DNA of 58,940 bases from an uncultured Pseudomonadales bacterium (GCA_964348115.1 CAYGBY010000001.1:1-58940); one strand, 5' to 3'. Shown: positions 15,810-58,940, counted from the stretch's first letter. The notes: generated by a model not told the origin, from the sequence alone. Program-made: numbers and translations.

Positions 15810-15810
15810 C

Positions 15811-33625: not shown

Positions 33626-33659
33626 ACGACTGCTCCTTTCTTCTGCGTGCGCCTAAGTG

Positions 33660-35109: not shown

Positions 35110-35232
35110 AGACAAACGCGGCGCCATTGACGCTGCGTTGAGCGATTGGCGTCAATTGGCGACAGAGAGCGCCCGGTCCGCCATCAGTTGGCTGCGTAGC
35201 CGTCCGGGAGATGACGGCTTCGGGTTGGCCCG

Positions 35233-39027: not shown

Positions 39028-39028
39028 T

Positions 39029-40411: not shown

Positions 40412-40413
40412 GG

Positions 40414-41298: not shown

Positions 41299-41304
41299 GG
41301 CCCC

Positions 41305-42492: not shown

Positions 42493-42505
42493 GGCGGCTT
42501 GCGCG

Positions 42506-42934: not shown

Positions 42935-42997
42935 GCTGGTCTCCTAGGCTGATTCGGCCAACGATTCCGGCAGCACCTTTGCCCCTGCCGGTATGCT

Positions 42998-43258
42998 GGG
43001 GAACCTCTGAACAAGTCGCGTTCGCCCAGCGCCCCGCTCTCAGCAGCGGGAGATGGCGTTGCGGCCATGGGAAGGCAATCCTCAGAGCAGAGGGCATTCC
43101 ACGGTCCGTACGCCGCGGAGCGCCCTTCGGGAGGGCCTAAATGGCGCGCTGGCTGTGTTGCGGCTCATTGTGTGGGGGTAAGCCACACGGCTTCGCCGCG
43201 CCTTGCCATCACGCCTTTTAGCCTCCTCTGGGCTTCCGGGACTTGTTCAGAGGTTCCC
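42998..43258. mobile_element. MITE family B, full-length reference copy (~260 bp)
   Basis: Terminal inverted repeats GGGAACCTCTGAACAAGTC and GACTTGTTCAGAGGTTCCC. The internal conserved hairpin GCGCCCTTCGGGAGGGCCTAAATGGCGCGC is present. The element is intergenic, between ndk and the acyl-CoA ligase. Confidence 0.75.
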
Positions 43259-43351
43259 TAGTGGACCCGCACTAAGCCGAAATGGCGCACATTATACGCT
43301 TTGGCCACAAAACTTCGGGGCAATTTCAGAACAGCCCACCGTCCGCTCAAT

Positions 43352-45088
43352 TCAGGCGGGGGCGCCGTCTTTGCCGGGCGCAATCTCTGCTGTCCCGTCG
43401 AACCACTCGCGCAGCTTGAACTTCTGCACCTTGGTGGAGGACATGGGCCAAGCCGTGACGAAGCGCACATGGCGGGGCGCCTTGAAGCTGGCGATGCGGC
43501 CTTTGCAGTAGTCGATGATGTCCCTCTCGCTGGCCGAAGCGCCCGGCTTGAGCTCGATAAAGGCCGCCGCCACCTCCAGCAGCCGTTGGTCCGGCACGCC
43601 GATGACCACCGCCAGCTTCACGGCCGGGTGGGTGGCCAGGAAGGATTCAATCTCCACAGCCGCCACATTTTCCCCACCCACTTTCAGCATGTCCTTGAGG
43701 CGCCCGTGGTAGCGGATCTGGTTTCGTTCGGTCAGGGCGCCTAGATCCCCGGTGCGCAGCCAGCCGTCCACGAAACTCTCCGCGTTTTTCCCTGGCGCCT
43801 TGTAGTAGCCGGCAAAGACGCAGTAGCCCTTGATCCATATTTCACCGCGCTCCTCCGGCCCCAAGGCGCGCAGGCTGTCCGGGTCCACTATCTTCACTTG
43901 CACGTCGGCAAAGGGAGCGCCGCAGGTGGTCAGCCGAGTGTTCAGATCCTCCTGTGGGTGGTTGAAGGAAATCACGCCACAGGCTTCCGTCAGCCCATAG
44001 GCGCCGGTTTGCACTGCCTGGGGGAAGGCGTTCTGGAAACGCCGCAGCATCTCAACCGGGGCTACGTTGTTGATGCGGCGCAGGCGGCTGAGATCCGTGT
44101 GTGGGAAGCGCGGGTGGTTGATGAGTTCATTGGTGACGGTGGGGAAGGAAGGGAAGGCGACCGTAGCCCTTTCCCGCTCCAGCATGCGCAGGGCGGCGCC
44201 GGACTCCACCCGATTCATGGACAGCATGGCGGCGCCGGCATCGAAGCAGCACAGCAATGGCAGGATGGACGCCATGTGGAACATGGGCAGGGGCGCCCAA
44301 AAGCGGTCCTCCTCGGTCAGGAAGTAGCGCTGGCGATTCATGGCGGCGCCGTTGCGCACCAAGGCGCCTTGGGCCAATGGACAGCCCTTGGGTTTGGCGG
44401 TGGTGCCGGATGTGTACATCATGATGGCGGGGGCGGAGGGCGCAACCGCCTGCTGAAGGGCGCACACCGCACTCCGCTCCCCAGCTTGGCCGGCGGCCAC
44501 GAAGCGCCGCCAGGGGATGAAGCCTGGCGGCGTGGTCTGGCTGACGGAGGTGATGAACCTGAGTTTGGGCGCGCGCGTCAGGCGCAGGGCTTGGGGTTGC
44601 CGCGCAGCCGCCAAGTCGGGGAGCGCTTCGTGCAGCAGTGCGGCAAAGTCCACGTATTCCGACGCCAAGCCGGAGGTGACCAAGCCCACGAGGTCCGCAT
44701 TCTCCACCACATAGGCCAGCTCCTCCGCCTTGTAGCGGGCGTTGACCGGCACCGCCACCGCGCCGATGCAGGCGATGCCGAACAAAAGCTCGATGTACTC
44801 GAGGCAGTTGGGCATGAGAATGCCGACATGCTCCCCAGGCTTCACGCCCAGGGCAAGCAGGCTTTGCGCCCGCTGCGCCGCAGCTTCGGCCAGGGCGGCG
44901 TAGCTGTGGCGCCCTTCCGGGAAGACCAGCGCATCCCGGTCTGGGAAGCGCTGGGCGGCGTTCTGCAGCAGGGCGCCGAGGGTGGCGGCGGAATCCGCCG
45001 CTTGGGCGCTGGGCGCGGCGGGCTGATCTAGCGTAGGCGCGGCTAGACCCGCTGCGGCCCGGCCTTCAATGGTAGACGGTGTCGTCAT
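43352..45088 (-). CDS. AMP-dependent acyl-CoA synthetase/ligase
   Basis: 578-aa ORF. The AMP-binding motif YTSGTTAKPKG, GYGLTE-like YGLTEACG, and GDLG....RYHGRLKDMLKVGGENV. Confidence 0.85.
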   Translation of the reverse strand: MTTPSTIEGRAAAGLAAPTLDQPAAPSAQAADSAATLGALLQNAAQRFPDRDALVFPEGRHSYAALAEAAAQRAQSLLALGVKPGEHVGILMPNCLEYIELLFGIACIGAVAVPVNARYKAEELAYVVENADLVGLVTSGLASEYVDFAALLHEALPDLAAARQPQALRLTRAPKLRFITSVSQTTPPGFIPWRRFVAAGQAGERSAVCALQQAVAPSAPAIMMYTSGTTAKPKGCPLAQGALVRNGAAMNRQRYFLTEEDRFWAPLPMFHMASILPLLCCFDAGAAMLSMNRVESGAALRMLERERATVAFPSFPTVTNELINHPRFPHTDLSRLRRINNVAPVEMLRRFQNAFPQAVQTGAYGLTEACGVISFNHPQEDLNTRLTTCGAPFADVQVKIVDPDSLRALGPEERGEIWIKGYCVFAGYYKAPGKNAESFVDGWLRTGDLGALTERNQIRYHGRLKDMLKVGGENVAAVEIESFLATHPAVKLAVVIGVPDQRLLEVAAAFIELKPGASASERDIIDYCKGRIASFKAPRHVRFVTAWPMSSTKVQKFKLREWFDGTAEIAPGKDGAPA

Positions 45089-45329
45089 CTTGGCGGTGGA
45101 CTCTCAGGTCTGCGCCCTGTTCCTTGCATATGGATTCCAGCGTCTCATGAATGCATGCCGCGCAGCAGCCATCCGCCACCAAGTCCTCCAGAAGGTAGCC
45201 TAGGACGTCATAGGCGCTGTAGTCGGTTTCCGCCATGCTTTCAAACCGCGCCAGCGCGTCCTTCATGATCTGCACCGTCGCTTCGCAACGGCCTTCGTCG
45301 CGCAGTTGCGCCTCGCTGGGGTTCTCCAT
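45066..45329 (-). CDS. hypothetical small Cys-containing protein
   Basis: The ATG at 45329 (MENPSEAQL) is preceded by GAGAGG. 87 aa with DGCCAACIHE. Its 3' end overlaps the start of the ligase gene by 23 nt. No family recognised. Confidence 0.35.
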   Translation of the reverse strand: MENPSEAQLRDEGRCEATVQIMKDALARFESMAETDYSAYDVLGYLLEDLVADGCCAACIHETLESICKEQGADLRVHRQDDDTVYH

Positions 45330-45464
45330 GTGCTTAAGGCCTCTCAAGGATTGCGGAGGCCGCCATTGTACTGCCGCACCAGCCCCTAAACCACAGGCCC
45401 TAGGCGGGCGGCAAGGCCGCGGGCGCCGAATCCGCCGCGCTTCGTCTGCGGCGAAGCGGCGATT

Positions 45465-45983
45465 TCAAGAGCGTATCGGGTCCCGGCCGTCCCAGTTTTC
45501 CGCGGCGGCGGCGATGGCGGCGAAGCGTTCCACAATGCCCTGGTTGCGCGTGACCACCTCCAGCATGCAGCCCATCAGCGGCCGGGTGTCATAGTAGGCG
45601 AACTCTATGTCTCCCACCCCGCCCTTGTTGACCGCTTCGTAGCCGAGGCCGGCGAAATAGGCCGTATCCGCTTCGATGTCGTGGGTCCACACGCACAGGT
45701 GGTGGAAGCCGCTGGTCCCCTTGGGCACGCTGTCCCGGTAGGCGCAACGCTCCACTGTTGGCTGGATCAACTCAATTTGCACGGGGCCGGCCTGGGCGAG
45801 GGCCACATGCATGGACAGTTTGGCCGGTGCGCCGCGATAGGTCATGTGGGTGAACAGGTCGGTGTACTCATTCAGGAAAAATGGCCCCACGCCCATTTCG
45901 TTGACCCACTTCATGCAGGCGGCCTCAATGTCGTCCACTACCCAGGCGTTCTGGAATACGGTTCGATCGGTCGGTTTGTTCAC
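45465..45983 (-). CDS. VOC (glyoxalase/bleomycin-resistance/dioxygenase) family protein
   Basis: 172-aa ORF. FQNAWVVDDIEAA..W...GVGPF and GFHHLCVW..DIEA blocks are typical of the paired beta-alpha-beta-beta-beta VOC fold. Confidence 0.6.
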   Translation of the reverse strand: MNKPTDRTVFQNAWVVDDIEAACMKWVNEMGVGPFFLNEYTDLFTHMTYRGAPAKLSMHVALAQAGPVQIELIQPTVERCAYRDSVPKGTSGFHHLCVWTHDIEADTAYFAGLGYEAVNKGGVGDIEFAYYDTRPLMGCMLEVVTRNQGIVERFAAIAAAAENWDGRDPIRS

Positions 45984-46132
45984 TTGGCTCCCCCTTGGAT
46001 GGCTAGGCTCCGATCATCCGTCAGACGGCGGCATTTGTAAAACCCGCCCGCGGGCGGTGCGCTGCGTCAAGAGGAAGCCTTATACTTGTGCGCCAAACCA
46101 ACCACCAATGCGCCCGTTACAGGAGGTTGCAA

Positions 46133-46600
<468 letters not shown>

Positions 46601-46616
46601 TCCGCCCCTGCTGCCG

Positions 46617-46915
46617 CAGGGCGCCCTTCGGCAGGGCCTAAAGGGCGCTTCCGGTGTTGCGGCTTATTGTGCGGCGCCCGCCGCAGGGCTTCGCCGCGCC
46701 TTGCCATCACGCCACCTAGGCTCATCTGGGCTTCCGCAGGACCATCCCAAAGTCGTCCACCAGCCCTCGGTAAAGCCCAATATAGAAGGTTTATGAGTGT
46801 TTCTCGGAAGATTCCGCAATATTCTGCGGCATCCAACGACCTTTCAGAAATTTTCTTTCAAGAGCGAACACTTTGGGATGGTCCTGGGGCTTCCGGGACT
46901 TGTTCAGAGGTTCCC
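46617..46915. mobile_element. MITE family B right portion, interrupted by a family A element
   Basis: GCGCCCTTCGGCAGGGCCTAAAGGGCGC...GGCTTCGCCGCGCCTTGCCATCACGCC...CTGGGCTTCCG [A insertion] GGGCTTCCGGGACTTGTTCAGAGGTTCCC. Confidence 0.7.
46737..46886. mobile_element. MITE family A, full copy nested in family B with a 9-bp target duplication
   Basis: TIRs CAGGACCATCCCAAAGTC and ACTTTGGGATGGTCCTG. A perfect direct repeat GGGCTTCCG abuts both ends (46728-46736 and 46887-46895). The uninterrupted B copy at 43229-43237 has that 9-mer only once. Confidence 0.8.
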
Positions 46916-46956
46916 TAGCGGGTAGGGGCGCTGCCCGGTCTATACTTCGCGGTCTT

Positions 46957-48783
46957 ATGCGGCGCCCACGGGAACTACTGCGGCAGGTCTATGGCCACGC
47001 CGAATTTCGCGGCGACCAAGAGGCCGTGATCGGTGCGGCCCTGGCCGGTCGCGACGCGCTGGTGCTGATGCCCACCGGCGGCGGCAAGTCGCTGTGCTAC
47101 CAGTTGCCGGCCTTGCTGCGGCCCGGCGTGGGACTGGTGGTGTCGCCCCTCATCGCCTTGATGCAGGACCAGGTGGCGGCGCTCCGGCAGCTGGGGGTGC
47201 GGGCCGCGTTTCTGAACTCGTCGCTCTCCTACCGGGAGCAGCAGCAGGTTATCGATGGGCTGGCCGCGGCGGCCTTCGACCTGCTCTATCTGGCCCCGGA
47301 ACGGCTGCTGATGGAGGAAACCCTGGATATGCTGGCCTGTGTGCCACTGTCCATCATCGCCATAGACGAGGCGCACTGCGTCTCCCAATGGGGGCATGAC
47401 TTCCGGCCCGAATACTTGGGGCTGGACATCCTGAAGGAGCGCTTCCCAGGTGTGCCCCGCTTGGCGCTCACCGCCACGGCGGACGCCGCGACCCGCAGGG
47501 AAATCCTCTCGCGGCTGGCTCTGCAGGGCGCCGACCAGTTCATCAGCGGCTTCGACCGCCACAACATTCGCTACAGCGTGCAGGTGAAAACGGACGCCGG
47601 CGGCCAACTGCTGCGCTTTCTGCAGGACCGCCCCGGCGAGGCCGGCATCGTCTACGCCATGACCCGCCGCAAGGTGGACCAAACCGCGGAACTGCTGTGC
47701 CGCAACGGCTTCAGGGCGCTGCCCTACCACGCCGGCTTGCCAAGCGCCGTGCGCAGCGAACACCAAGCACGCTTCCTGCGCCAGGACGGCGTGATCATCG
47801 TGGCCACCATCGCCTTCGGCATGGGCATAGACAAGCCTGACGTGCGTTTCGTGGCGCATATTGACCTGCCCAAGAGCGTGGAGGCCTACTATCAGGAAAC
47901 CGGCCGCGCCGGTCGCGATGGAGAGCCGGCCGAGGCCTGGATGATCTACGGCCTGCAGGACGTTGTGCGCCTGGCGCAGATGGTGGACCAATCCGAGGCG
48001 GAGGACGGGCACAAGCGCAGTGAGCGCGGCAAGCTGGACGCCCTGTTGGGCTGGTGCGAGGTCACCACCTGCCGCCGCCGCGCCCTGCTGCGGTATTTCG
48101 GCGAAGAACGGGCGGAGGACTGCGGAAACTGCGACATCTGCCTAACTCCGCCCAAAACCTGGGACGCCACGGAGGCCGCGCAGAAGCTGCTTTCGTGCAT
48201 CTACCGCACCGGGCAGTTCTTCGGCGCCGGCCACGTCATCGACGTGCTGCGCGGCAAGGACACGGCCAAGGTCCGCCAACACCGCCACGCCAAGCTGTCC
48301 ACCTTCGGCATAGGCGAAGACCGCTCCGAGGCGCAGTGGCGCTCAATCGTGCGCCAGCTAATGGTGCAGGGCTATCTGCGGGCGGAGGCGCAGCGCTACG
48401 GCGCCCTGTCCCTTACGCCCAAGGCCCGCCCCCTGCTGCGCGGCGATGAGCGCATTTGGCTGCGGGAGGACAGATCCGCCAAACGCCAGCGGCCTAAGGC
48501 GGCGCCGAAGCCGGCATTCACGGTGCCGGCTGCGGACCAAGGCCTATGGGAGGCCTTGCGGGAACTGCGCATCAACTTGGCCCAGGAAGCCGGCGTGCCG
48601 CCCTACGTCATCTTCCACGACGCCACGCTGAAGGAAATGGTGCGCCAGCGGCCCGCCACCAGGGAGGAACTGCTGCGCCTGCCGGGCATCGGGCAGACTA
48701 AGCTGGAGCGCTATGGAGATCAGTTTCTTGCGGTGCTGCGCAGTGATGGCGCGGCGCTGGCCTCCGCACCGACGATTGACTGA
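46957..48783 (+). CDS. recQ: ATP-dependent DNA helicase RecQ
   Basis: Start at MRRPRELLRQVYGHAEFRGDQ. Helicase motifs MPTGGGKSLCYQ, DEAHCVSQWGHDFRP and TIAFGMGIDKPDVRFV. RQC Zn-finger CRRRALLRYFGE...CGNCDIC. HRDC at the C-terminus. Confidence 0.95.
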   Translation: MRRPRELLRQVYGHAEFRGDQEAVIGAALAGRDALVLMPTGGGKSLCYQLPALLRPGVGLVVSPLIALMQDQVAALRQLGVRAAFLNSSLSYREQQQVIDGLAAAAFDLLYLAPERLLMEETLDMLACVPLSIIAIDEAHCVSQWGHDFRPEYLGLDILKERFPGVPRLALTATADAATRREILSRLALQGADQFISGFDRHNIRYSVQVKTDAGGQLLRFLQDRPGEAGIVYAMTRRKVDQTAELLCRNGFRALPYHAGLPSAVRSEHQARFLRQDGVIIVATIAFGMGIDKPDVRFVAHIDLPKSVEAYYQETGRAGRDGEPAEAWMIYGLQDVVRLAQMVDQSEAEDGHKRSERGKLDALLGWCEVTTCRRRALLRYFGEERAEDCGNCDICLTPPKTWDATEAAQKLLSCIYRTGQFFGAGHVIDVLRGKDTAKVRQHRHAKLSTFGIGEDRSEAQWRSIVRQLMVQGYLRAEAQRYGALSLTPKARPLLRGDERIWLREDRSAKRQRPKAAPKPAFTVPAADQGLWEALRELRINLAQEAGVPPYVIFHDATLKEMVRQRPATREELLRLPGIGQTKLERYGDQFLAVLRSDGAALASAPTID

Positions 48784-48849
48784 AACGGACCTTCGCCAAC
48801 ATCCCCTTCACGGGCGCCATGACCAAGCGCCACAGCGAATGGACGCTGC

Positions 48850-49233
48850 CTAACGGGCGTCCAGCGCGCCTTCGACAATGTCGAGCAGTTCACTGGTTAC
48901 GTCCGGCTGAAGGGTGGCTGCGCGGGAGAATAGTTCGCCAAGTCCCTTGGCCGAAGATCCTTTGCCCAGCGTCTTCTCCACCAAGGCTGCAATGCGTTTC
49001 CCCTGACGCCGTTGGGCGGCAATGCGCTCCCGGCGACGGCGTTCAACGATTGCGGTAATTCCCGCCAGCCAGACCTGCGCCTCCAGCGCCCGCCTTTGTT
49101 CGACCAACTCCCGGGACCGGCGCAGCACACTTTCCACGAGCCTCGCCAGCGCCCGGTCCTCAGCCAGCACCGCCTTCACCTCGATTGTGGCGAGCCTGGA
49201 GTGCAGTCTGGCAATTAAAGTGCTATCAGCCAC
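48850..49233 (-). CDS. hypothetical Arg-rich helical protein (operon gene G, last gene)
   Basis: The candidate GTG at 49233 shares 1 nt with the TAG of gene F (TAGTG). The alternative ATG at 49266 would overlap F by 34 nt. No family recognised. Confidence 0.45.
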   Translation of the reverse strand: MADSTLIARLHSRLATIEVKAVLAEDRALARLVESVLRRSRELVEQRRALEAQVWLAGITAIVERRRRERIAAQRRQGKRIAALVEKTLGKGSSAKGLGELFSRAATLQPDVTSELLDIVEGALDAR

Positions 49234-50561
49234 TACTTTTCGAGTTGATTGAGCAAACGATCCCACAATTGCCCGGAGCGTTCCCCAGCTTCGTCATGGG
49301 CCCTTTGCTGGCGTTCCAGCATTTTGTCCAAATGATCGCGCTCAGCCCGTTTCTGCTCCTGCTGCCGCTGGGTCTCCGTTTCGACGAGTTCACGCAGGGT
49401 GGCGACGGCCTTGCCGAGGTCGGCGTTGTGCTTGTTGCGGGTGTCCTCAAGCAGCGCGAAGGTCTCCTTCATCTGGGCCAACTCCGCGTCAGCCGTCTGC
49501 GTCCTGGACTGGGAGGCTTGCTCTTGGAACGCCCGCTCCTGGGCGACGATGGATTCGAGCCTCCCTTCAAAGGACGAAACCGTGCTCCGCCACTCGGCCA
49601 GCGCGGCCTGGCGCAGTTCGGACTCGCCCTCATGCCATTTGGCGAAATGCTTCTCGACGATCGTCTTCGTCATTTCCGCCAGCTGCCCGCGCTCAGCCCG
49701 TTTCTGCTCCTGCTGCCGCTGGGTTTCCGTTGCAACGAGTTCGCGCAGGGTGGCGACGGCCTTTCCGAGGTCGGCGTTGTGCCTGTTGCGGGTGTCCTCG
49801 ACCAGCGCGAAGGTCTCCTTCACCCCGGCCAGCTCCGCGTCAACCGCCTCCGTCCTGGACTTGGAGGCCTGCTCCTGAAACGCCCGCTCCTGGGCGACGA
49901 TGGACTCGAGCCTCCCTTCAAAGGACGCAACCGTGCTCCGCCACTCGGCCAGCACGGCCTGGCGCAGCTCGGACTCGCTCTCATGCCATTTGGCGAAATG
50001 CTTCTCGACGATCGTCTTGGTCATTTCCGCCAGCTGCCCGCGCTCAGCCTGTTTCTGCTCCTGCTGCCGCTGGGTTTCAGTTTCGACGAGTTCACGCAGG
50101 GTGGCGACGGCCTTGCCGAGGTCGGCGTTGTGCTTGTTGCGGGTGTCCTCAAGCAGCGCGAAGGTCTCCTTCATCTGGGCCAGCTCCGCATTGACCACTT
50201 GCGTGCTCATCGTGCGCAATTCGGCCAGCGTCTTTGCCCGCCACTCCTGTTCCCGCTGTTCGTACGCAGCAAAGAAACGTTCAAGCCGCTCCGCGAGCTT
50301 CTTGTCAGCTTCGCCCAAATTCGCGCCTGCTTCTTCGCTGGCTTGCGCCAATGCCCTGGCAGTTGTTTCAGCTCCTGCATCGACCCGCTCCCGTACGCTC
50401 ACTAGCAGCTGATGCAGTGCCTGACCAGACCTTGCTGCAACTATCCCTGCGGCTACGGCGATTCCCATCACCACAGCCCAGATGGCAAGAGGGGGATTTA
50501 TGATGGCTAAAGCCGCCGCGGCAACCAGCGGAACCACAGCCCCGAACTCCCAATGCTTCAT
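49233..50561 (-). CDS. membrane-anchored coiled-coil protein made of 117-aa tandem repeats (operon gene F)
   Basis: 442-aa ORF. The N-terminus has two hydrophobic helices (AVVPLVAAAALAIINPPLAIWAVVMGIAVAAGIVAA), followed by 2.4 near-identical 117-aa helical repeats. Its ATG overlaps the TGA of gene E (ATGA). Confidence 0.65.
   Translation of the reverse strand: MKHWEFGAVVPLVAAAALAIINPPLAIWAVVMGIAVAAGIVAARSGQALHQLLVSVRERVDAGAETTARALAQASEEAGANLGEADKKLAERLERFFAAYEQREQEWRAKTLAELRTMSTQVVNAELAQMKETFALLEDTRNKHNADLGKAVATLRELVETETQRQQEQKQAERGQLAEMTKTIVEKHFAKWHESESELRQAVLAEWRSTVASFEGRLESIVAQERAFQEQASKSRTEAVDAELAGVKETFALVEDTRNRHNADLGKAVATLRELVATETQRQQEQKRAERGQLAEMTKTIVEKHFAKWHEGESELRQAALAEWRSTVSSFEGRLESIVAQERAFQEQASQSRTQTADAELAQMKETFALLEDTRNKHNADLGKAVATLRELVETETQRQQEQKRAERDHLDKMLERQQRAHDEAGERSGQLWDRLLNQLEK
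49338..50189. repeat. 351-bp near-identical tandem repeat, ~2.4 copies, in-frame within gene F
   Basis: Repeat units start at protein positions 125, 242 and 359 (AELAQMKETFALLEDTRNKHNADLGKAVATLRELVETETQRQQEQK...). Only a handful of substitutions separate the units. Confidence 0.85.
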
Positions 50562-51226
50562 GTGCCTGTCTCCTCTTCCGTCGGCGCCTGCAGCGTCTCG
50601 TCAATGCGCTGCAGCTGTATAATTAAGGCGTGAATACGCTCCATTTCATTTCTCCATTGGCTCCAAAGTTCTCCGTACAGCTTCCAGAGGTTGGGACGAA
50701 ACACGTCATAAAGCACGATTCCGCCATCCAATTTATCCAGCCAGTCATCGTATTTGTTGCGTTTTTCCGCAAGACGCGCTTCAAGCGCTTTAAGGAAATG
50801 CGTCAGTTCGCGGACAAATTCGTTGCGAAGCCGTTCAGTATAGGCTTCCGTGACCACCCCCTTAACCGCGCATTGCAATAGGTTGAACCGTTTCAGCGGC
50901 TCGGCGGAGGCCACGGCGTCAACCATTGATCGAGTCGCTGCCCGGAAGAGCCGATCTACTTTGGGCTTGTCCAGCAAGGCATTCGCCGGCGGCAGCTTTT
51001 TGCTGTTTCCTTCCTTGAGCGCCTCCCTCAGAATGCCTAGGATCTCGTACACCAATTCCAGGATTTCATCTTGAGCCTCCAATGGCAGCCGCCCCGTCTC
51101 CGCAGCGTCGTCCATCTCCAGGGGCGTAACGGCTGGGAAGCGCTGGCTTTTTGCGAAGGCGTCGCGCCCTTCAAAGCCGGTTAGAAGCCCGATGAATTCG
51201 GACGAATTTCTTGCCCAGATGGTCAT
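50558..51226 (-). CDS. hypothetical helical protein (operon gene E)
   Basis: The ATG at 51226 (MTIWARNSSEF) shares 1 nt with the TAA of gene D (TAATG). 222 aa. No family recognised. Confidence 0.5.
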   Translation of the reverse strand: MTIWARNSSEFIGLLTGFEGRDAFAKSQRFPAVTPLEMDDAAETGRLPLEAQDEILELVYEILGILREALKEGNSKKLPPANALLDKPKVDRLFRAATRSMVDAVASAEPLKRFNLLQCAVKGVVTEAYTERLRNEFVRELTHFLKALEARLAEKRNKYDDWLDKLDGGIVLYDVFRPNLWKLYGELWSQWRNEMERIHALIIQLQRIDETLQAPTEEETGT

Positions 51227-52158
51227 TACGGCCCCACCACCACCCAAGGCCGGTTGCTGTTCTCCTCGAATCTCTCCAGCGCCCGGCCAACTTTTGGCAG
51301 AACTTTTGAGCGCGCCCCTTCATCCTTACTTTCCCCACGCACGAAGGATGCCGCTTTGAAGAGCCCTACGCGAACTGGCGTGTCCTGCCAGAAGTCGGAA
51401 AGCCAACGAATGACCTCTCGACGCCCTATTTGCGCCCTATTGGCGCACCAAACGACCCGGCGGACTTGATGCTTTTGCGGCAATCCCAATTCGGCCGCTT
51501 CTTGGGCCGATTGGGGAAGCGCTTCCAGCTGCGGCCATAGGACGATCCAACGGTTGTGGGGCAGCAGAGGGTTCGGGACCTTAACCGCCACGGTCTGGAA
51601 GTTTTGCTCGACTGGGGCCACCAAAATTTTTGCCGCCGCGTCGGGCCGTAGGGATTTGGCGGAAACAGCGCAGGGCCAACCCTCTTCAAGATTGACCTGA
51701 ACGCTGTGATATTGCGCGCCCTGGGCATCGGGCGATGCGTGGCCGAAAATTAGCAGCGGGCGCTTGGTCGGAAAGACATCCCGGCTAAGGCCAAGCGATA
51801 GAAGGGCATGCTCCAGATCTGGGCGAGACTGGGACAACCAAAGATCGGCCGCCTCCGCAGAGATTCCGATGACATTCCGGTCGTCGTCTGCTGACCCCGC
51901 CTCGCCGTCGTATTCAGTTTCAAACCCCGCCAGCGGATCGTCATCCGACGCCTGGAACGCCCCACTCTCGGCTGTTCCGGCGGCATTTCCACGCTCGTCC
52001 GCTGACCCCGCGGCGGGGTAATCAGTTCCAAATCCAGCCAGCGGGTCATCATCCGGCGCCTGGGGCGCCTCACTTGCTTCGGAAAAGGCCCCTAATTCCT
52101 GCCCCAACTTCTGATGCCTTTTGAGAACTCGTTCCCAAAGGACGGCGCCTTGACTCAC
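51226..52158 (-). CDS. hypothetical protein with duplicated acidic DDDPLAGF motif (operon gene D)
   Basis: The GTG at 52158 overlaps the TGA of the third dynamin-like gene (GTGA). The N-terminal disordered acidic region carries two ~31-42-aa repeats, followed by a ~200-aa C-terminal globular-looking region. No family recognised. Confidence 0.5.
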   Translation of the reverse strand: MSQGAVLWERVLKRHQKLGQELGAFSEASEAPQAPDDDPLAGFGTDYPAAGSADERGNAAGTAESGAFQASDDDPLAGFETEYDGEAGSADDDRNVIGISAEAADLWLSQSRPDLEHALLSLGLSRDVFPTKRPLLIFGHASPDAQGAQYHSVQVNLEEGWPCAVSAKSLRPDAAAKILVAPVEQNFQTVAVKVPNPLLPHNRWIVLWPQLEALPQSAQEAAELGLPQKHQVRRVVWCANRAQIGRREVIRWLSDFWQDTPVRVGLFKAASFVRGESKDEGARSKVLPKVGRALERFEENSNRPWVVVGP

Positions 52159-54497
52159 AACGCCTCCAAGGATGACATTGCGGACTGAAGGGCCGAACAC
52201 ATCTTCTGATTGCTTTCCAGGGCCTCTTTGACAGCTGCTTCCCCCTGCGTCTGTTTTGCCTGCGCTTCCTGCAGCGCGGCCTGAACCTCGGCCTTAATGG
52301 CGTTTACGCGCTCCCGCAGGTGATTCTCAAGTGCTTCATGGGCGGAGTCAAAGCCTGCGCTCACCGCCCGGCGAATATCCGCGAAAAGCGAATCTCCATC
52401 GCGGGAGAGAAATTGACGGCTCAGTTGCGCCATGAGCGCCAACTTGGCCTTGGATGCTTCTTCGTCCCGCTGCAAATTGCGCCGATCCTCCTCCAACGCC
52501 TTTCTCTCCCGTTCCAGGCGCAGGGTCTGCTCTTCCACCCTCTCCAATTCCGTGCGTTTTTCCCGCAGGAGCTGCTCATAATGCCCCTGCCTCAGCCTAA
52601 TTTTCTCCCGCTCATATCCAAGCCTGTGCATCTCATCGTCCAATGGTTTCTTGAGCTTGAGAAACTCCTGACGAACCTCCTCGTTTTCGATTTCGACTAC
52701 TTTATCTGGGTGGAAATAGCCGCCTATAGCTCCCCCTAGGCGCCCTCCCCAGGTTTCAAGGGAAAAGTTTTCGCCAAACTGCTCCATCCCATCCTTTATA
52801 TGGGTCGGGCCCTTCCGGTCGCGCAGCCGATTATTGCGATCGATGATACGGCGATTGTGGTTTTCTATCCCTCTAATGATTTGCGCACCCCGGGGCAGTG
52901 TTTTTAGAAACTTGCCGAATTTCCCGCCGATGGGAATGGGCGCTAAGGTCAAAACCATATCGGCTATCCCTCCTAGCATTCGCCCAGCCTGCTGAAATTC
53001 CTCCTTTCCTTGATCGAGGGAAACCCTATCCATCTGCGGCACATATGTGAGCTTATCGCGCTCCGCCTGCGTAGCGGCTAGCGCCTGTTGAATGCCTTCC
53101 AACTCCTCGGCCGGCGCATGTTTGCGCAATGCCTCAATTTGGCGCAGCAGCTCCTCTCGGGAATGATGCACATCCTCGATATGCGGCAAGTCCTCGTCAG
53201 AGTGGCTGGCAACCCCTCCCTGCGGAAGCTCCTGCAGCCAATCGGTTGAGACCCCCTTTTGCTCAAGGTGTTGGGATGCGACAGTCTGGGCGATTTCGAC
53301 ACCGGCTTGATCGAGTTGCCTTAGGCGATCTTCAGCTGCGGCAACACAGGCTTCCCGCCATTGCAGGACATAGCTGCGAACGGAACTATTGGCGAATCGC
53401 TGCACTTCGTCGCGGATTTGCAATGTGGCGATCTTTTCGGAAATGGCTTGCAGGGTCTCCTGGCCGATCTCGCGCATGTGATTGAATGCTTCAAAACGCA
53501 ATCGCCTACAGCGGTCCTTCAACGTACTGGCGGCATCCCTGATGCCGGCCTCTTGATCGGCCCCTTCCTCTACGATGTCGCGCTCCACGCCCTTGCCTTG
53601 GTCTCTTATGGTCAAGGCATCGGCCTTAAGAGCCGATTGCTTAAGGCGTAGAGCGGACAGTTCGCGCCCAAGTTTTTCCGTTACGCGGCCGCCAAGATGA
53701 TGGGCTATCAATTGCTCGCGGCGTGTCCCGGTCACTTCCGATAAAACCTGCCGAATAGCCGCAATGCCCGTCTCCGCAGTGCTTGAGGTCGGCAATATCG
53801 CCAAGGGCGAGACACCGCGCTCCGCGAGGCGATGGCGGAAGTCAGCGACCACCCGATCCACCGAATCCAGGGGGAGCTGATCAGCCTTTGTCAACGCGAT
53901 CACCACGCTGGCCGAGTTGTCCCCTAAGCTCTCCAAATAGTCGACGTCCGTTTTCCTGCCCGTGCTGGTCGCAGGAATGGCCAGAATCACCACAGGGGCG
54001 GTGGCCGCCGCAGCCCAAGCCCGCCCTTCCAGCTCTGGGGTGTTGGTGTTCATTCCGGGCGTATCCACTAGACTTGCGTTCCAAGTGGCCAACTGCTCGC
54101 TTCCCAGACCAACCTCAAGGCGCGAACCCGCGCGGATTGGCTCCCGCCCGCGCACCAGCGCATCCCAGCGCGCGTCGTCTTCGCTGCACTCTTCCCATTC
54201 TTCAGTGTCGCCATGCACCAGGGCGCGATAGTTGGCTGAAGCGTATTTGACCTCAACCGGGCGCGCGGTGGACTCAAGGACGTCCTGGGGAAAGGTCGCC
54301 AACCTATCCACGCCAAAGATGCGGGCGACCAAGGCGCTCTTCCCGGACCCCATTTCACCAATGACGGGAATGCTCAGGGGCGCTGCATGCGCGGCGCTGG
54401 ACTCGTCCCGCACATAAGCCGCCAACTGGCCCAATCCCGCTGCTTCCAGTATCTCCAAGATCTTCCGCCACCGCTCCTCAAAGCTGGACTCGCTCAT
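52155..54497 (-). CDS. dynamin-like GTPase (bacterial DLP), paralogue 3
   Basis: 780-aa ORF. G1 GEMGSGKS, G3 LVDTPGMN, G4 TKAD. Long charged helical stalk. Hydrophobic paddle-like segment GRMLGGIADMVLTLAPIPIGGKFGKFLK (52899-52982). Its ATG overlaps the upstream TGA (ATGA). Confidence 0.8.
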   Translation of the reverse strand: MSESSFEERWRKILEILEAAGLGQLAAYVRDESSAAHAAPLSIPVIGEMGSGKSALVARIFGVDRLATFPQDVLESTARPVEVKYASANYRALVHGDTEEWEECSEDDARWDALVRGREPIRAGSRLEVGLGSEQLATWNASLVDTPGMNTNTPELEGRAWAAAATAPVVILAIPATSTGRKTDVDYLESLGDNSASVVIALTKADQLPLDSVDRVVADFRHRLAERGVSPLAILPTSSTAETGIAAIRQVLSEVTGTRREQLIAHHLGGRVTEKLGRELSALRLKQSALKADALTIRDQGKGVERDIVEEGADQEAGIRDAASTLKDRCRRLRFEAFNHMREIGQETLQAISEKIATLQIRDEVQRFANSSVRSYVLQWREACVAAAEDRLRQLDQAGVEIAQTVASQHLEQKGVSTDWLQELPQGGVASHSDEDLPHIEDVHHSREELLRQIEALRKHAPAEELEGIQQALAATQAERDKLTYVPQMDRVSLDQGKEEFQQAGRMLGGIADMVLTLAPIPIGGKFGKFLKTLPRGAQIIRGIENHNRRIIDRNNRLRDRKGPTHIKDGMEQFGENFSLETWGGRLGGAIGGYFHPDKVVEIENEEVRQEFLKLKKPLDDEMHRLGYEREKIRLRQGHYEQLLREKRTELERVEEQTLRLERERKALEEDRRNLQRDEEASKAKLALMAQLSRQFLSRDGDSLFADIRRAVSAGFDSAHEALENHLRERVNAIKAEVQAALQEAQAKQTQGEAAVKEALESNQKMCSALQSAMSSLEAL

Positions 54498-56857
54498 CTT
54501 GTAGCCTCCTCGCCTCCCTTTTCAGCAAAAGCCTCATGCTCCTTCTGTAGTTGCGCCGCCTCTTCCTGCAGGCTCGTCAGGCCTTCCAGCGCTTTGGCAA
54601 TTTCCTCCGCTCTGGCATCCCGCTCGCCCTCCTTCTCTTCCTTCAAGGATTTGAGTTTCGCCAACTCTTGATTGCGGCCCTGCAAAGTTGCATCGATATC
54701 CGCCACAGTTTGACCGATAAAGTCATTGGTTATCTCTTGGGTCTGGCTAACAATATTTTCCATGCCGGCGGCTAGGGTTTCCGCCCCCGACTGAAAGGCG
54801 CCAAGCAATTGCGCCCGGCTTGATTCCACAACCCGCTGTTGGGACTTCGCCTTGCTCTCTCTGTAGCGAGCTTCCTCCTTTTCCAAGGCCTGTCGCCGAG
54901 TTTGATTAAGAGATTCCATTCTCTGGGTGCGCGCCTTATCCAATGCCCCCGGATTGCGCTTTGCCCTTGCCTCTTTCACACGTAGGTCGAGTTCAGCTCG
55001 CTTGTCCTTGTACCACTGCTCAATGCGCTTCACTTCTTCGTCATGACGCTTTCGATCTTTGTCATCGGTAACCGTCACCTCGTAAGATTCAATCTTCGGC
55101 CCCAAAAAAATATTTCCGATCACACCAAAAAAACCCCTTCTTTTTCTTTCTCTTTGCCCAATTTCCGTATGAACTCTCAATTCGGGACGACTGCCGAGCA
55201 TCTGCCTTTCCCCAACCCGTTCCTCTTTCAGCTGCTTCACGTTGTCCTGCAGCTCCACGTAGCGATGCTCAGCTGACTCAGCAAGAGCACGTTTTTCCTC
55301 CATTTTCCCCAACTCCAGATCGCCCTTCTCGATCTCCTCCTCGAGGTCCCTGATCTTTGCTTGCGAATCTTCGTCGAACTTAGGCTTTTGCAACGAAAGA
55401 GCGATTTCCGTCACTTCCGGGAGGTCGAAATCCACTTCGTCCAACTCGCTTCGGAGCTGGCTGCGAATCTCTCGAGCCTGTTTACGCAACACGCGACCTA
55501 CAGCGTATTTGAATAGCTGATCCGCTTTCTTATCGAGTGCCGCCAACTTCCTGCCCGGTAGGTTGGCCAGGTGAGCACCTTCATCCCAATTCTCCTTGAG
55601 CGCATCATAAGAGTCGTAGGCGTTTATCTCATCCCTAATCTCCTCCAATTGGGATTTGCGCCTCTCCTCCCAGTCATCTCTCGCTTGCAGCAGCGCGCGC
55701 GACAGTTCTTCGGCCAACTCTTCCGCCCTACCCTCGAGTTCGTGTTTTCGCTCGGCGACAATTCGTGCCGTTTTTTCTATTTCGAGTTCAAGCTTGGACA
55801 GATCAAATGTGTCGTCTAAAACCCCTTTCTGCCGATCTAGTTTGCCAACGCACTTGGCGGCCTCGCTTTGAACGAACGAAAGGGGGGTGTGCAGAAGGTC
55901 ATAACCCTTACCACCACGAAAAAGATACTCCTCGAGTGCATTCTCAAAGGCTTGGATGCCGGACTCCTCAATCAAAGTGTGGCAAAACAGCGGATCCGCC
56001 AACTTATCGCGCTCCTTCTCCGCGAGAATTGAATTCCTCGCATATCCGACACGCCCGAGAAACGCCTTCGCTGCGGATACGCCAAAGACTGGGAGCTTGT
56101 CGGCCGGCTGCCTGTCCACGACATTCCGAATGCCATCCTCCACGCGCTGCAAAACCCGGCCGACCTCGCTTTCATCCACGGTGTCGATTCTGTTCACAAC
56201 AAAGAATAGGCGGCCAACCGCCTCCTCTACGCTTTCAAGGAACTGCCGGTCCGACTGGGTTACCTGGGTTTGCGCGCCAAAAAGAAAGATGGCCGCACTG
56301 CTGCGGTCGATCTGGTCGTTGGTGATCCGAGTGTGGGTTTCGGTTGTTGTATTGGTCCCAGGGGTGTCGACCAGCAGTACGTTGTCCTCCAGGAAGCGCG
56401 ATTCCACGAAGACATCTACATGATCCACCGCGCTGGCCACGTCTTCGAGGCGTCCAGAGTGCCGCGAAGTATAGTCCGAAAGTTCATCAACCGGCACTTT
56501 TTCCTTTTTTCCATCGATAAAATGAACTTCCACATGATCGGGCGACTGGCTTTCCTCCGCCCTTGGGTAGCGAAGGAAATTGACAGTTGCCGTACACTCA
56601 AGTACGTCCATTGCAAGCAATTGCCTGCGCATCATCGCATTCAGGAGCATGGACTTTCCACGCTTCATTTCGCCGACGACCACGACCACGAACTCCTCGT
56701 TCTGAACGGCGTTGGCCCGCTCCTGCAAACTTTGCACAAGACCGCTTCCACCTTCATCGTCCAAGAGCGGGACGACATCCCGCATGTTCTCGGCGGCTCG
56801 GTTCAGCAGCGCAGCCACCTTGTCGCGCAATTCTGCAAACCCTTCCTTTACGTTCAT
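54494..56857 (-). CDS. dynamin-like GTPase (bacterial DLP), paralogue 2
   Basis: 787-aa ORF. G1 GEMKRGKS, G3 LVDTPGTN, G4 NRID. Helical stalk. Paddle-like RRGFFGVIGNIFLGPK (55094-55138). ATGA overlap with paralogue 1. Confidence 0.8.
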   Translation of the reverse strand: MNVKEGFAELRDKVAALLNRAAENMRDVVPLLDDEGGSGLVQSLQERANAVQNEEFVVVVVGEMKRGKSMLLNAMMRRQLLAMDVLECTATVNFLRYPRAEESQSPDHVEVHFIDGKKEKVPVDELSDYTSRHSGRLEDVASAVDHVDVFVESRFLEDNVLLVDTPGTNTTTETHTRITNDQIDRSSAAIFLFGAQTQVTQSDRQFLESVEEAVGRLFFVVNRIDTVDESEVGRVLQRVEDGIRNVVDRQPADKLPVFGVSAAKAFLGRVGYARNSILAEKERDKLADPLFCHTLIEESGIQAFENALEEYLFRGGKGYDLLHTPLSFVQSEAAKCVGKLDRQKGVLDDTFDLSKLELEIEKTARIVAERKHELEGRAEELAEELSRALLQARDDWEERRKSQLEEIRDEINAYDSYDALKENWDEGAHLANLPGRKLAALDKKADQLFKYAVGRVLRKQAREIRSQLRSELDEVDFDLPEVTEIALSLQKPKFDEDSQAKIRDLEEEIEKGDLELGKMEEKRALAESAEHRYVELQDNVKQLKEERVGERQMLGSRPELRVHTEIGQRERKRRGFFGVIGNIFLGPKIESYEVTVTDDKDRKRHDEEVKRIEQWYKDKRAELDLRVKEARAKRNPGALDKARTQRMESLNQTRRQALEKEEARYRESKAKSQQRVVESSRAQLLGAFQSGAETLAAGMENIVSQTQEITNDFIGQTVADIDATLQGRNQELAKLKSLKEEKEGERDARAEEIAKALEGLTSLQEEAAQLQKEHEAFAEKGGEEATR

Positions 56858-58940
56858 GCCAATTCTCCTTGGTCTTCGCAGCGAAACGTCTCCATCGCTC
56901 TTGAAAGTGTTTCCCGAACGCCTTTCTCCCTGGTCCTTTCAGCATCCTTCGCACGAGCCTCAGCCCGCGTACGCTTAATTTGATCCGACAGCAATTTATG
57001 CTGTCGATCTGAAGCATCCCTAAATCGCGCGTCGAAATCCAGTGAAATTTCCTCCAGCATTCGCTCAGCTCCCTGTTCAAGTTCACCGGAAAGTGCGTTG
57101 AAAAGACTTTCCAGCTCCCTTCGAGCGCCAATCTTAAGCTGTGCTTGCCGGGTTTTGATCCCGGACTGGTGATACCTTTCCCTTTCCTCCGCGAAACGCG
57201 CCTCCTCCCGCCTCAAGCGCGCTTTGGAGTTGTCCAGATCTCGCTGCAGTTTCTGGAGTTCGCCGCTGGCTTTTTGCGTTTCTTTCGGCACATTTTTGAG
57301 GGGATCGATTTTTTGGTCAAAATCGGCAACCTTCTTATTCGCCTTTTCGTACTTGCGTTCCCACTTCTCCACGCGGCTGTAGTCTTTGCGGCTCCGTGTC
57401 ACCTTGACCTCCTTCTCTTTCGGACCGAGTAACCAGTCCAGGAAGCCTGTTCCACCACGCTTTACCTTTATCTTCTCTTTTGCAGTGTAGTATGTAACCT
57501 TAGGAGTTGGCTTCGGCCCGAGTTGCGTTCGGTTTCCTACCGCCTGTTTGCGTTGCGTTCTGAGGTTCTCCAGCTGAACGGACTGCTTTTCAAGCGCTTC
57601 GACCTTTGCCTCCCCTTTTCGCAAAGCCCGCTCCCAGTTTACAACGTTCCTCTTCAGCCTGCCGATCTTGTTTTCGCGGCGGCTTAGCGCCTTACTTGTT
57701 TTGTCCGCCTGCAGTTTAATGGGGGCCATATCCAGTTTTACGGAAGCCAACCCTTGCCGGTCCAGCGCGGAGACCTGACCGTGATTTTCGAGGTCATGGA
57801 CCAATCGATTCGCCGATGCCTTCAGCAGCCGATGGATCCTATCAAAAACAGGTTTTTCCAAGCTTTCGTTTAGGCAATCAGACACCGCCTTTTGCGCTAC
57901 TCTTAGGTCGTCCCGCTCGATCAGCTTAGCCTCCAACCCATCCACAAAGCTCCTCATCTCCTGTTCAATGCCGGGCTGCCTTTCGCTTAGAAAGCTTTGT
58001 AGGATGCCCAGTTCCCCCATCAGGGTTTTTCGCGCCAATCGGAGAATGTTTTCTCCTGTGCGCTGTAGGTCCTCCGCCGTTTCATCGAGACGCGCTTCTG
58101 CTGCTTCCAGCTCCTTTGAAACACTCCTATCGAATTCCGCTTCGCGTTTTTCGATACGGGCGATCTCCGCTTTGCAAATTTCCCGCAACAGTGACAACGG
58201 ACGCCTTTTTAGAGCGGAGGATCGGCCCTTGAGAACGCCTTTATTCAGCTCCTCCAGGTCTTCGATGAAGCGATACTCTTCGTCCTCCAGTTCCTCCTCG
58301 CCCTCAAGGTAAGCGCCGCCCTCGAAAGCGCGTTTGGCGGAAAGGGTGTAAATGTCCTTGTAGTCAAGTTGGGCAACGCGCTTGTGAAGTTCCTCCCTAA
58401 AGTGCTCAAACCCATTGCCGCTCTTTGCGTATTGGTCGCACTTGTTGATGACGACCAGGACGCGGTTGGCGATGGAACGCGCTTTCTTTATTAGCTCGAT
58501 ATCGCTCTGTCGTCCAATCCCATTGACAGGAACCACGACTATGGTCACATGGGACATGCCGAGCTGGTGTATGCTGCGCGCCTCCAATTCCGTCTTACCG
58601 TTGAGTCCAGGGGTATCCACGAGCACGAGGCTGGTCTTTGGCTCCTTGCTTTCCGCGGGCAGCACAATTTCCACTCTTTCAATGGCCTCCCAGGCATCCT
58701 CGTCAAGGGTGGTCCGGGCGCTGACTTCGGAAAGCGGCACGGCGTCCGTGCCGCCGTTTGCATAAACAACTGTGGCCGGTCTATCTTCATCGAGTTGCTC
58801 CTCGTCGCTCCACCTAACCCAGGTGGGCACGGCCGTACACTCGAATAGATCGGTGGCAAGCAGGTTTTCTCCGATGAATGCGTTTAGGAGGGTGGATTTT
58901 CCCGTGTTGAACTCGCCCATCACGGTGATGCAAAGGCGTT
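56854..58940 (-). CDS. dynamin-like GTPase (bacterial DLP), paralogue 1; N-terminus outside the window
   Basis: The reading frame is open to the window edge (...RLCITVMGEFNTGKSTLLNAF). G1 GEFNTGKS, G3 LVDTPGLN, G4 NKCD. K/R/E-rich stalk. Paddle-like GGTGFLDWLLGPK (57421-57459). Confidence 0.8.
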   Translation of the reverse strand, partial: RLCITVMGEFNTGKSTLLNAFIGENLLATDLFECTAVPTWVRWSDEEQLDEDRPATVVYANGGTDAVPLSEVSARTTLDEDAWEAIERVEIVLPAESKEPKTSLVLVDTPGLNGKTELEARSIHQLGMSHVTIVVVPVNGIGRQSDIELIKKARSIANRVLVVINKCDQYAKSGNGFEHFREELHKRVAQLDYKDIYTLSAKRAFEGGAYLEGEEELEDEEYRFIEDLEELNKGVLKGRSSALKRRPLSLLREICKAEIARIEKREAEFDRSVSKELEAAEARLDETAEDLQRTGENILRLARKTLMGELGILQSFLSERQPGIEQEMRSFVDGLEAKLIERDDLRVAQKAVSDCLNESLEKPVFDRIHRLLKASANRLVHDLENHGQVSALDRQGLASVKLDMAPIKLQADKTSKALSRRENKIGRLKRNVVNWERALRKGEAKVEALEKQSVQLENLRTQRKQAVGNRTQLGPKPTPKVTYYTAKEKIKVKRGGTGFLDWLLGPKEKEVKVTRSRKDYSRVEKWERKYEKANKKVADFDQKIDPLKNVPKETQKASGELQKLQRDLDNSKARLRREEARFAEERERYHQSGIKTRQAQLKIGARRELESLFNALSGELEQGAERMLEEISLDFDARFRDASDRQHKLLSDQIKRTRAEARAKDAERTREKGVRETLSRAMETFRCEDQGELA

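Follow-up and report, generated by a model that had tools for sequence, protein, structure and literature searches.

A conserved cassette of three dynamin-like proteins with paralog-specific putative membrane elements

We analyzed a 58,940-nucleotide stretch of DNA from an uncultured Pseudomonadales bacterium (GCA_964348115.1 CAYGBY010000001.1:1-58940), hereafter called the window. Its minus strand carries seven open reading frames (ORFs), arranged head to tail from 48850 to the window end in the order P1-P2-P3-g4-g5-g6-g7. The first three encode full-length dynamin-like proteins (DLPs) of the BDLP/mitofusin type. The larger result is that they belong to a conserved triple-DLP cassette, with paralog-specific putative membrane elements and a membrane-anchored coiled-coil partner, g6. 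With moderate confidence, we take the hydrophobic loops of these three BDLP-type proteins to be membrane elements of the distal stalk, through which the co-assembled proteins would dock peripherally on the membrane. An earlier note on this DNA, made from the sequence alone, had described the three DLPs and their loops; the four downstream operon genes, including the transmembrane (TM) coiled-coil protein, the distribution of the cassette and the hypervariability of the loops go beyond it.

The three DLPs and their hydrophobic elements

All three proteins score above the curated gathering cutoff for Pfam Dynamin_N (PF00350), with E values of 4.5e-17 for P1, 6.7e-26 for P2 and 5.1e-08 for P3, and each has the four motifs of a dynamin-superfamily G domain. 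G1, G2, G3 and G4 are GEFNTGKS, ECTAV, DTPG and NKCD in P1; GEMKRGKS, T91, DTPG and NRID in P2; and GEMGSGKS, T77, DTPG and TKAD in P3. The P-loop and G4 motifs had been quoted correctly in the earlier note, and its view that all three P-loops look catalytically competent agrees with the orthologs: G1, the G2 threonine and DTPG are invariant or nearly so across 31 P2, 31 P3 and 6 P1 homologs, and, judged from these alignments, none of the three proteins shows a degenerate catalytic motif. BLASTP aligns the paralogs over the G domain alone, at 24-29% identity. Outside it, AlphaFold2 (AF2) models of P2 and P3 are all helical, as expected of a dynamin neck and trunk, and P1 joins them through profile alignment. 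No stretch is of TM grade, as the earlier note had said: the best 19-residue Kyte-Doolittle window outside the G domain reaches 1.45 in P3, 0.78 in P2 and less than 0.7 in P1. With a maximum of 1.45, the proteins lack the TM hairpin that permanently anchors mitofusin/Fzo1 in the membrane by the tip of its stalk and fall outside that family; the likeness to it lies in the G domain and the neck fold.

Each protein has one hydrophobic element inside its helical stalk. The three peptides named earlier are indeed present in the translations, within a few codons of where they had been placed: a hydrophobic core with its flanks in P1 (KRGGTGFLDWLLGPKEKE, which includes RGGTGFLDWLLGP), RGFFGVIGNIFLGPK in P2 and RMLGGIADMVLTLAPIPIGGKFGKFLKT in P3, the last shifted by one residue from the string given before (Table 1).

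The P1 and P2 elements are related. The two families are homologous along their full length, the profiles aligning across 613 columns (E 2e-36), and their loops fall in register, with P1 QLGPKPTPKV...KVKRGGT-GFLDW-LLGPKEKEVKV against P2 MLGSRPE--LRV...RKRRGFFGVIGNIFLGPKIESYEV. The common design consists of basic residues, a glycine, 6-11 hydrophobic or aromatic residues and Gly-x-Lys, on a predicted beta-hairpin; residues 576-585 of P2 form a helix in the AF2 secondary structure. Conservation lies in the skeleton LGx[RK]P ... R-x-G ... G-x-K and in the hydrophobic character between the glycines. Among 31 P2 homologs, P558 and G575 are invariant and L554, G555, R557, G578 and G586 nearly so; the stretch between the glycines drifts yet stays hydrophobic (LGGFLAYLFRG, ILGGLKWVFVG, LFGGISFLLFG), and in 27 of the 31 no other 11-mer past the G domain is more hydrophobic than the loop. 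One P2 ortholog, P0006, has its loop expanded to a Gly/Ala-rich stretch of ~40 residues (GGALGFFLGGPLGAAIGAAIGGGGGGLIG; alignment A1, columns 630-675), which we liken to a glycine-zipper membrane segment. For P1, which is represented by 12 sequences from two phyla, the loop is the best Wimley-White interfacial 9-mer in five of six sequences and the top hydrophobic 11-mer in just one of the six. Its skeleton is kept in the Latescibacterota orthologs and in the first DLP of Bacillota (for example, YRGGLGILDAIFGPKEK).

These alignments bear out only part of the G-F-x..L-G-P-K loop that had been proposed as common to all three proteins. The P1 and P2 loops correspond, but conservation does not extend to LGPK itself: among P2 homologs it occurs only in the 95%-identical one, and in the P1 family it is present in the window's P1 and in that of L003, one of the five Latescibacterota orthologs aligned. 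P1 of the sister strain L030 carries FGKKKK at this place.

Nor is the P3 element a longer variant of the same motif, as had been suggested. It is a different module of ~120 residues, delimited by the AF2 model and by conservation, and the P3 and P2 profiles align in the G domain only. It comprises, in order, YVPQ, a strand (489-492), a hydrophobic helix (501-518; GRMLGGIADMVLTLA), PIPIGGK, helices 526-532 and 537-559, a variable disordered linker, NFSLETWGGRLGG and a strand (601-604; VEIENEE). The hallmarks are YxPQ, the hydrophobic helix followed by A-P-I-P (LTLAPIP) and a second conserved segment, LSxExWG, with N577-x-S-L-x-T-W-G among the conserved positions of the orthologs. Across 31 P3 orthologs Y485, P487, G509, D513, L516, P520, P522, K526, N548, S579, W583, G584 and E604 are invariant, and P597 and N605 are also among the conserved positions. 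In distant P3-type proteins (20-30% identity), invariance outside the G domain is confined to Y485, P487, G509, G588 and E604, which all belong to the module. Ranked by hydrophobicity, the loop comes first among the 11-mers past the G domain in all 31 family members. The module is rare: a search of 1.84 billion representative proteins gave matches to only 17 clusters.

The AF2 models of P2 and P3, built with 31-sequence alignments, have mean predicted local distance difference test (pLDDT) scores of 77.5 and 75.3 and predicted template modeling (pTM) scores of 0.53 and 0.42. Past the G domain, the P2 helices run ~92 residues down, 56 up and 55 down, then, after residues 562-597, 105 up and 74 down; those of P3 run 97 down, 52 up and 44 down, then, after residues 489-604, 92 up and 76 down. 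In both models the hydrophobic element thus comes after the third trunk helix and before the fourth. Because the paddle of Nostoc punctiforme BDLP1 sits between the third and fourth trunk helices (PMC6715688), the P2 and P3 elements would occupy the same topological site. If the helices pack antiparallel, as in solved DLPs, this topology would put the insert at the end of the stalk distal to the G domain.

Comparison with known structures is consistent with this assignment. The P2 profile finds BDLP (2j68) in the PDB with an E value of 1.9e-31, and the top Foldseek match of the P2 model is the same structure, over its full length (E 4.8e-17); for P3 the top Foldseek matches are IniA, BDLP and Cj-DLP (E 1e-13 to 1e-10), and mitofusin is also among the top matches for the models. 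The P3 profile matches PDB entries in their G domains only. Both models end in an extra C-terminal helix of ~75 residues, for which BDLP1 has no room because it is ~90 residues shorter. We rejected a direct alignment of the P2 stalk to BDLP as a map of the paddle: it is a weak coiled-coil match (10.9 bits, i-Evalue 1) that would move the register by ~90 residues, and the confident profile match is limited to the first 386 profile positions, which cover the N-terminal helices, the G domain and the first stalk helices.

Conservation across phyla and variation between strains

The cassette extends well beyond the window. Close homologs of the DLPs come from Candidatus Latescibacterota metagenome-assembled genomes (MAGs), and the seven-gene order is kept in five genomes of this group (L001-L005), with DLP identities of 48-72%. 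In Bacillota, where hosts include Clostridia, Selenomonadaceae, Pseudoneobacillus and Bacillus hominis, three consecutive genes for DLPs of ~780 aa are followed by one for a soluble protein of 350-410 aa and then by one for an N-terminally membrane-anchored coiled-coil protein. Here too, gene position predicts loop type: the first DLP carries the P1-type loop quoted above, the second a P2-type loop (RGGILGAIGYLLFGGK, RKGVFGVIVKVFCGKKK) and the third a P3-type loop (GNIADWAMILLPSGA, AFGNVVDIALLLVPGD). This implies that the triplication is old and that each paralog has kept its own element. Provisionally defined as three successive genes for full-length DLPs, each position with its own loop type, and downstream orphan genes of which one encodes a coiled-coil protein with an N-terminal membrane anchor, the triple-DLP cassette is found in the window, L001-L005, L030, the Bacillota loci in L006-L020 and the Lysinibacillus plasmid pFN9A. 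In L007, L008 and pFN9A the genes are annotated merely as "dynamin family protein" or "hypothetical protein", and we found no description of triple-DLP operons in the searchable full-text literature, which omits most subscription journals. Homology of g4-g7 to the Bacillota accessory proteins X and Y was rejected, with hhalign probabilities of no more than 0.2%; they are alike in architecture alone. A Spirochaetia MAG (L017, 9869-22295) holds a disrupted cassette, in which P1 continues into a fragment of P2 that is set apart from a fragment of P3 by ~8 kb of unrelated ORFs; the probable cause is an insertion or an artifact of assembly.

Variation between close relatives is concentrated at the loops. 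The flanks of strain L030 are 99.85-99.93% identical to those of the window, and the two strains agree completely over the first 400 visible residues of P1, over the whole of g4 and, barring its uncertain start, over g5; g6 is nearly without nucleotide differences over the aligned part, and its repeat number differs. The operon shows 337 nucleotide differences, concentrated in three peaks that overlap the P1, P2 and P3 loops (Table 1). By a rough estimate, the chance that the highest 100-nt bin of each gene should fall on its own loop in all three is below about 1 in 1,000. Synonymous divergence (dS) is 0.29-0.49 in the peaks versus 0.002-0.11 in the other compared segments, barring the C-terminal part of P1 (0.25). 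Because dS is elevated, mosaic recombination is the likely source of the variation. The ratio of nonsynonymous to synonymous divergence (dN/dS) is 0.33-0.69 in the peaks, compared with 0.12-0.25 in other segments with enough differences for an estimate. On these figures the peaks resemble divergent alleles brought in from elsewhere, with constraint relaxed or diversifying, rather than products of local point mutation. A diversity-generating retroelement was rejected as the cause: the changes show no adenine-specific bias, and neither the window nor L030 contains a template copy.

The operon also has the marks of an accessory module. Its G+C content at third codon positions (GC3) is 0.61-0.66 (0.76 in g6) versus 0.75-0.85 in neighboring genes (der, hisS, rodZ, rlmN, recQ and an acyl-CoA synthetase gene, at 29000-48800, compared with the operon at 48850-58940), which is consistent with horizontal acquisition. 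The low G+C is not a mere effect of Lys/Glu composition, since GC3 also lies 0.1-0.2 below that of the neighbors. The flanks of the cassette differ from genome to genome, and recQ adjoins it only in the window and the sister strain. In two of three Bacillota loci scanned, Zorya genes or a WYL regulator lie directly upstream: the cassette immediately follows ZorA/ZorB in L007 (99-2572) and a WYL regulator in L008 (6569-7588). On the Lysinibacillus capsici plasmid pFN9A (L031; NZ_CP106863.1, record 7008-19078) it stands beside an IS4 transposase.

Known systems and competing interpretations

Among known DLPs, BDLP1 (2j68/2j69/2w6d) is the best sequence and fold match for P2. It shares the N-terminal helices, G domain, neck and trunk bundles, is encoded alongside a tandem paralog, BDLP2, and has its lipid-binding element inserted between trunk helices 3 and 4, where the P2 and P3 elements are also predicted to lie. 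Its paddle, however, is a helical hairpin, whereas in P1 and P2 a predicted beta-hairpin carries a short hydrophobic stretch; it is ~90 aa shorter than P2 and P3, which have the added C-terminal helix; and there are two paralogs in Nostoc, compared with three here and four further operon genes. The BDLP1 paddle also mediates dimerization in the apo and GDP crystal forms (PMC6715688).

Closer in design to the P1 and P2 loops are two experimentally validated sites. In Bacillus subtilis DynA, F363-F365 are flanked by K360 and K367, and both liposome binding and phage protection are lost when either group is mutated (PMC12998192); in Cj-DLP2 of Campylobacter jejuni, the lipid site is a disordered FVLF530-534 motif at the trunk's tip (PMC6104087). 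KRRG-FFGVIGNIF-LGPK in P2 and KRGGTG-FLDWLL-GPKEK in P1 follow this pattern, P2 in particular sharing the Lys-flanked Phe cluster of DynA. DynA is also a multi-headed DLP assembly, as P1-P3 would be, and it contributes to phage protection. It differs in being one fused polypeptide encoded by a housekeeping gene, whereas the window has three separate ORFs of ~745, 787 and 780 aa in an accessory cassette with extra proteins; P2 scores 41.7 bits on the model for DynA-type proteins (NCBIfam NF052648, ~1,190 aa and two-headed), whose cutoff is 1600. The Cj-DLP1/Cj-DLP2 pair (5owv/5oxf) likewise comes from one operon, is hetero-oligomeric in C. jejuni, has a short hydrophobic lipid motif and gives significant profile and fold matches. 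It is a pair rather than a triplet, with an HcpA-like beta-lactamase as the third operon gene and without a TM coiled-coil partner. Cj-DLP1 recruits the Cj-DLP1/2 tetramer to the membrane (PMC6104087).

LeoABC and the Eleos systems also place several DLP genes in an accessory island; the accessory genes differ. LeoB is the Leo component without a G domain. The remark in the earlier note that not every LeoABC component retains an intact G domain was right in substance, in that LeoBC is one DLP split into two genes (PMC4159319). Leo has LeoA and one further DLP, sometimes split into LeoC and LeoB, where the window has three complete DLPs of ~780 aa, and the LeoA paddle is short and Gly-rich (PMC4159319). 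The PADLOC models that define Leo systems (LeoA, LeoBC and LeoB) gave no LeoA match, no match for P2 and an E value of 0.0018 for P3, and the proteins of the window do not fit the Leo type. The two-gene Eleos/Leo-type dynamin system is proven to be anti-phage, often lies beside defense systems and protects against jumbo phages (Millman et al. preprint). As for mycobacterial IniA/IniC, IniA belongs to the isoniazid-inducible iniBAC operon. IniA is the top Foldseek match for P3, whose stalk finds no match to it at the sequence level. It attaches to the membrane without a TM helix, through a Gly-rich basic loop (the LI loop; PMC6715688) that is oriented parallel with the trunk and relies more on charge than on hydrophobicity.

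Taken with the position of the elements and their pattern of conservation, these analogs make paddles the best reading of the loops. Co-assembly of P1-P3 is plausible because of the 4-nt overlaps at both DLP-DLP junctions and the gene-order-specific orthology across phyla. From such data we infer lipid binding, hetero-oligomerization, GTPase activity and a biological role for P1-P3. The three DLPs would be made together and assemble into a hetero-oligomer, which would dock peripherally on the cytoplasmic membrane via its loop elements; P3 and P2 would supply the strongest hydrophobic insertion, and P1 a contact of interfacial, aromatic/basic type. The DLPs would probably be assisted by g6, the coiled-coil protein with two TM helices, and by g4, g5 and g7, the soluble orphans; a GTP-driven conformational change may tether, seal or remodel the membrane. 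Because the cassette behaves as an accessory, exchangeable module, envelope stress or phage defense is the most likely context, and a role in membrane protection or phage defense is plausible but unproven.

Several observations weigh against this model. Local pLDDT at the inserts is 46-59 in P2 and 32-60 in P3, and these low values, together with pTM of only 0.42-0.53, leave the packing of the domains uncertain; placement at the stalk tip derives from helix-length bookkeeping and the Foldseek fold class. The P3 element is equivalent to those of P1 and P2 only topologically, and the P1 loop is short, holds an Asp and lacks a Kyte-Doolittle peak. G4 of P2 is NRID, with Arg for Lys, in the window genome and NKID in most orthologs. 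In the known systems, the D2 subunit of DynA alone gives no phage protection, the membrane-binding site being in D1 (PMC12998192); Cj-DLP2 alone shows negligible lipid binding at low concentration (PMC6104087); and for LeoA, lipid binding in vitro was not observed (PMC4159319). Because not every partner in the known pairs binds lipid, equal membrane activity of all three proteins is not to be assumed. PADLOC gives no more than a weak match of P1 to LeoBC (E 1.2e-12, P1 residues 3-384, the G domain and part of the stalk). Finally, no defense genes lie near the operon in the window, where the neighbors der, bamB, hisS, rodZ, rlmN and recQ are housekeeping genes.

The unequal character of the loops raises the possibility, to which we give tentative weight, of a division of labor, in which one or two loops, most likely those of P3 and P2, insert in lipid and the P1 loop serves in regulation or protein contact. 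The missing hydropathy peak of P1, its rank as top 11-mer in a single sequence of six and the Cj-DLP2 and LeoA precedents point this way; but the same loop leads on the interfacial (Trp/Phe/Leu) scale in five of six sequences, its design, aromatic with basic flanks, persists from Latescibacterota to Bacillota, and it lies in register with the clearly hydrophobic loop of P2. It is quite unlikely, in our judgment, that the hydrophobic segments are protein-protein interfaces, for closed-state dimerization or docking on g6 or another partner or target, instead of lipid anchors. The dimerizing paddle of BDLP1 would fit such a role, as would the membrane-anchored coiled-coil partner that the cassette always encodes, and variation between near-identical strains is greatest in the loops, as a specificity surface would lead one to expect. 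Against this, the P1 and P2 loops conserve hydrophobic character, and not residues, between invariant glycines, which is typical of lipid-inserting loops; their basic flanks suit anionic lipid head groups; and there is no sign that the loops co-vary with g4, g5 or g6, which, the repeat number of g6 apart, barely differ between the strains.

A functionless resemblance, arising by chance or from composition in K/R/E-rich coiled coils, is highly improbable and largely refuted. Pairwise BLASTP does align the G domains only, even profiles fail to align the stalks of P2 and P3, and LGPK is not conserved, all of which would fit chance; yet the long P1/P2 profile alignment with its loops in register, the residues invariant in each family, the confinement of the distant P3-type invariants outside the G domain to the module and the finding that a second phylum has these three loop types, each at its corresponding gene position, are hard to reconcile with it. 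A more far-reaching proposal, which we regard as unlikely, is that the cassette is an unrecognized, horizontally exchanged conflict or defense system, directed against phage or responding to envelope damage, and built of a heterotrimeric dynamin and a membrane-anchored coiled-coil protein of variable length; beyond anchoring in lipid, its paddles would be exchangeable determinants of specificity or sensing kept diverse by recombination. The paddles being such determinants would account for strain differences that peak at the loops.

Bacterial DLPs have been described as singletons, tandem pairs or fusions, to which a conserved triplet is now added. With each paralog keeping its own membrane element across phyla, alongside a coiled-coil partner, the cassette is a natural system for tests of division of labor, and the versions in cultivable Bacillota, one of them on a plasmid, could ease experiment. 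The loop-focused strain variation raises the question of whether DLP paddles experience diversifying pressure, as encounters with factors from phages or competitors would lead one to expect. Should the cassette protect against phage, it would be a third architecture of dynamin-based immunity beside DynA and Eleos.

Operon layout and neighboring features

The genes of the operon are tightly packed (Table 1). Overlaps of 4 nt (ATGA or GTGA) occur at P1/P2, P2/P3, P3/g4 and g5/g6; taking the starts as listed, the overlap is 22 nt at g4/g5 (1 nt with an alternative g5 ATG) and 34 nt at g6/g7. The window ends inside P1. Its orthologs are 737-745 aa long, and because P1 of L030 has 745 aa, 49 N-terminal residues are missing from the window.

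Table 1. Coordinates of the operon genes, loop elements and strain-difference peaks in the window
Feature	Coordinates	Strand	Description
P1	56854 to beyond 58940	minus	DLP paralog 1; 695 codons visible, stop included; N-terminus cut by window end
P2	54494-56857	minus	DLP paralog 2; 787 aa
P3	52155-54497	minus	DLP paralog 3; 780 aa
g4	51226-52158	minus	Orphan protein, 310 aa; GTG start
g5	50558-51247	minus	Orphan protein, 222-229 aa depending on start
g6	49233-50561	minus	Membrane protein, 442 aa; two N-terminal hydrophobic helices and coiled coil
g7	48850-49266	minus	Small orphan protein, 138 aa; final operon gene
P1 loop module	57379-57522	minus	LGPKPTPKV-(strand)-KVKRGGTG-FLDWLL-GPKEK-(strand)-KDY
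P1 core with flanks	57409-57462	minus	KRGGTGFLDWLLGPKEKE
P1 core	57421-57459	minus	RGGTGFLDWLLGP
P2 loop module	55064-55198	minus	Residues 554-598; LGSRPE, strand 562-571, KRRG-FFGVIGNIFLG-PK, strand 588-597
P2 peptide	55094-55138	minus	RGFFGVIGNIFLGPK
P3 module	52677-53045	minus	Residues 485-607
P3 peptide	52899-52982	minus	RMLGGIADMVLTLAPIPIGGKFGKFLKT
Peak at P1 loop	57400-57700		66 differences from L030
Peak at P2 loop	55000-55200		28 differences from L030
Peak at P3 loop	52800-53000		62 differences from L030

The scans of Pfam, NCBIfam and PADLOC assigned no family to g4, g5 or g7 and gave just weak, sub-threshold ZorA-like coiled-coil matches for g6. The start of g4 is backed by its orthologs and by a 310-aa gene call in L030. 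Its acidic N-terminal region (51884-52074) holds two copies of DDDPLAGF[GE]T[DE]Y, and orthologs retain a DDPLxxF-like motif, which could be a short linear motif for partner binding. The start of g5 is uncertain, being either TTG at 51247 or ATG at 51226, where it overlaps the g4 stop. For g7, which is ~70% identical to its Latescibacterota orthologs, the gene call in the sister strain is 106 aa.

The hydrophobic helices of g6 lie at ~aa 3-44, with Kyte-Doolittle 19-mers of 2.47 and 1.75. Its coiled coil is encoded by a 351-nt tandem repeat (2.4 copies, 92% matches, 49337-50189; Tandem Repeats Finder), each unit a block of ~117 aa. The repeat number differs, and so do the protein sizes, 208 aa in L030 and ~340 aa in L001 and L004 compared with the 442 aa of the window, implying that the length of the coiled coil varies among strains.

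No Rfam RNA family was found in the window. The operon's surroundings include a conserved minus-strand housekeeping block of rlmN, rodZ, hisS, bamB and der (35233-42624), which implies that the host is a diderm bacterium. Beyond this block lies an element of ~285 nt (42986-43271) that resembles a miniature inverted-repeat transposable element (MITE) and has 44-nt terminal inverted repeats that are 80% complementary; partial copies occur at 46610-46736 and 46887-46920. In L030, related MITE-like copies lie upstream of P1 and beside recQ, bracketing the DLP operon together with recQ.

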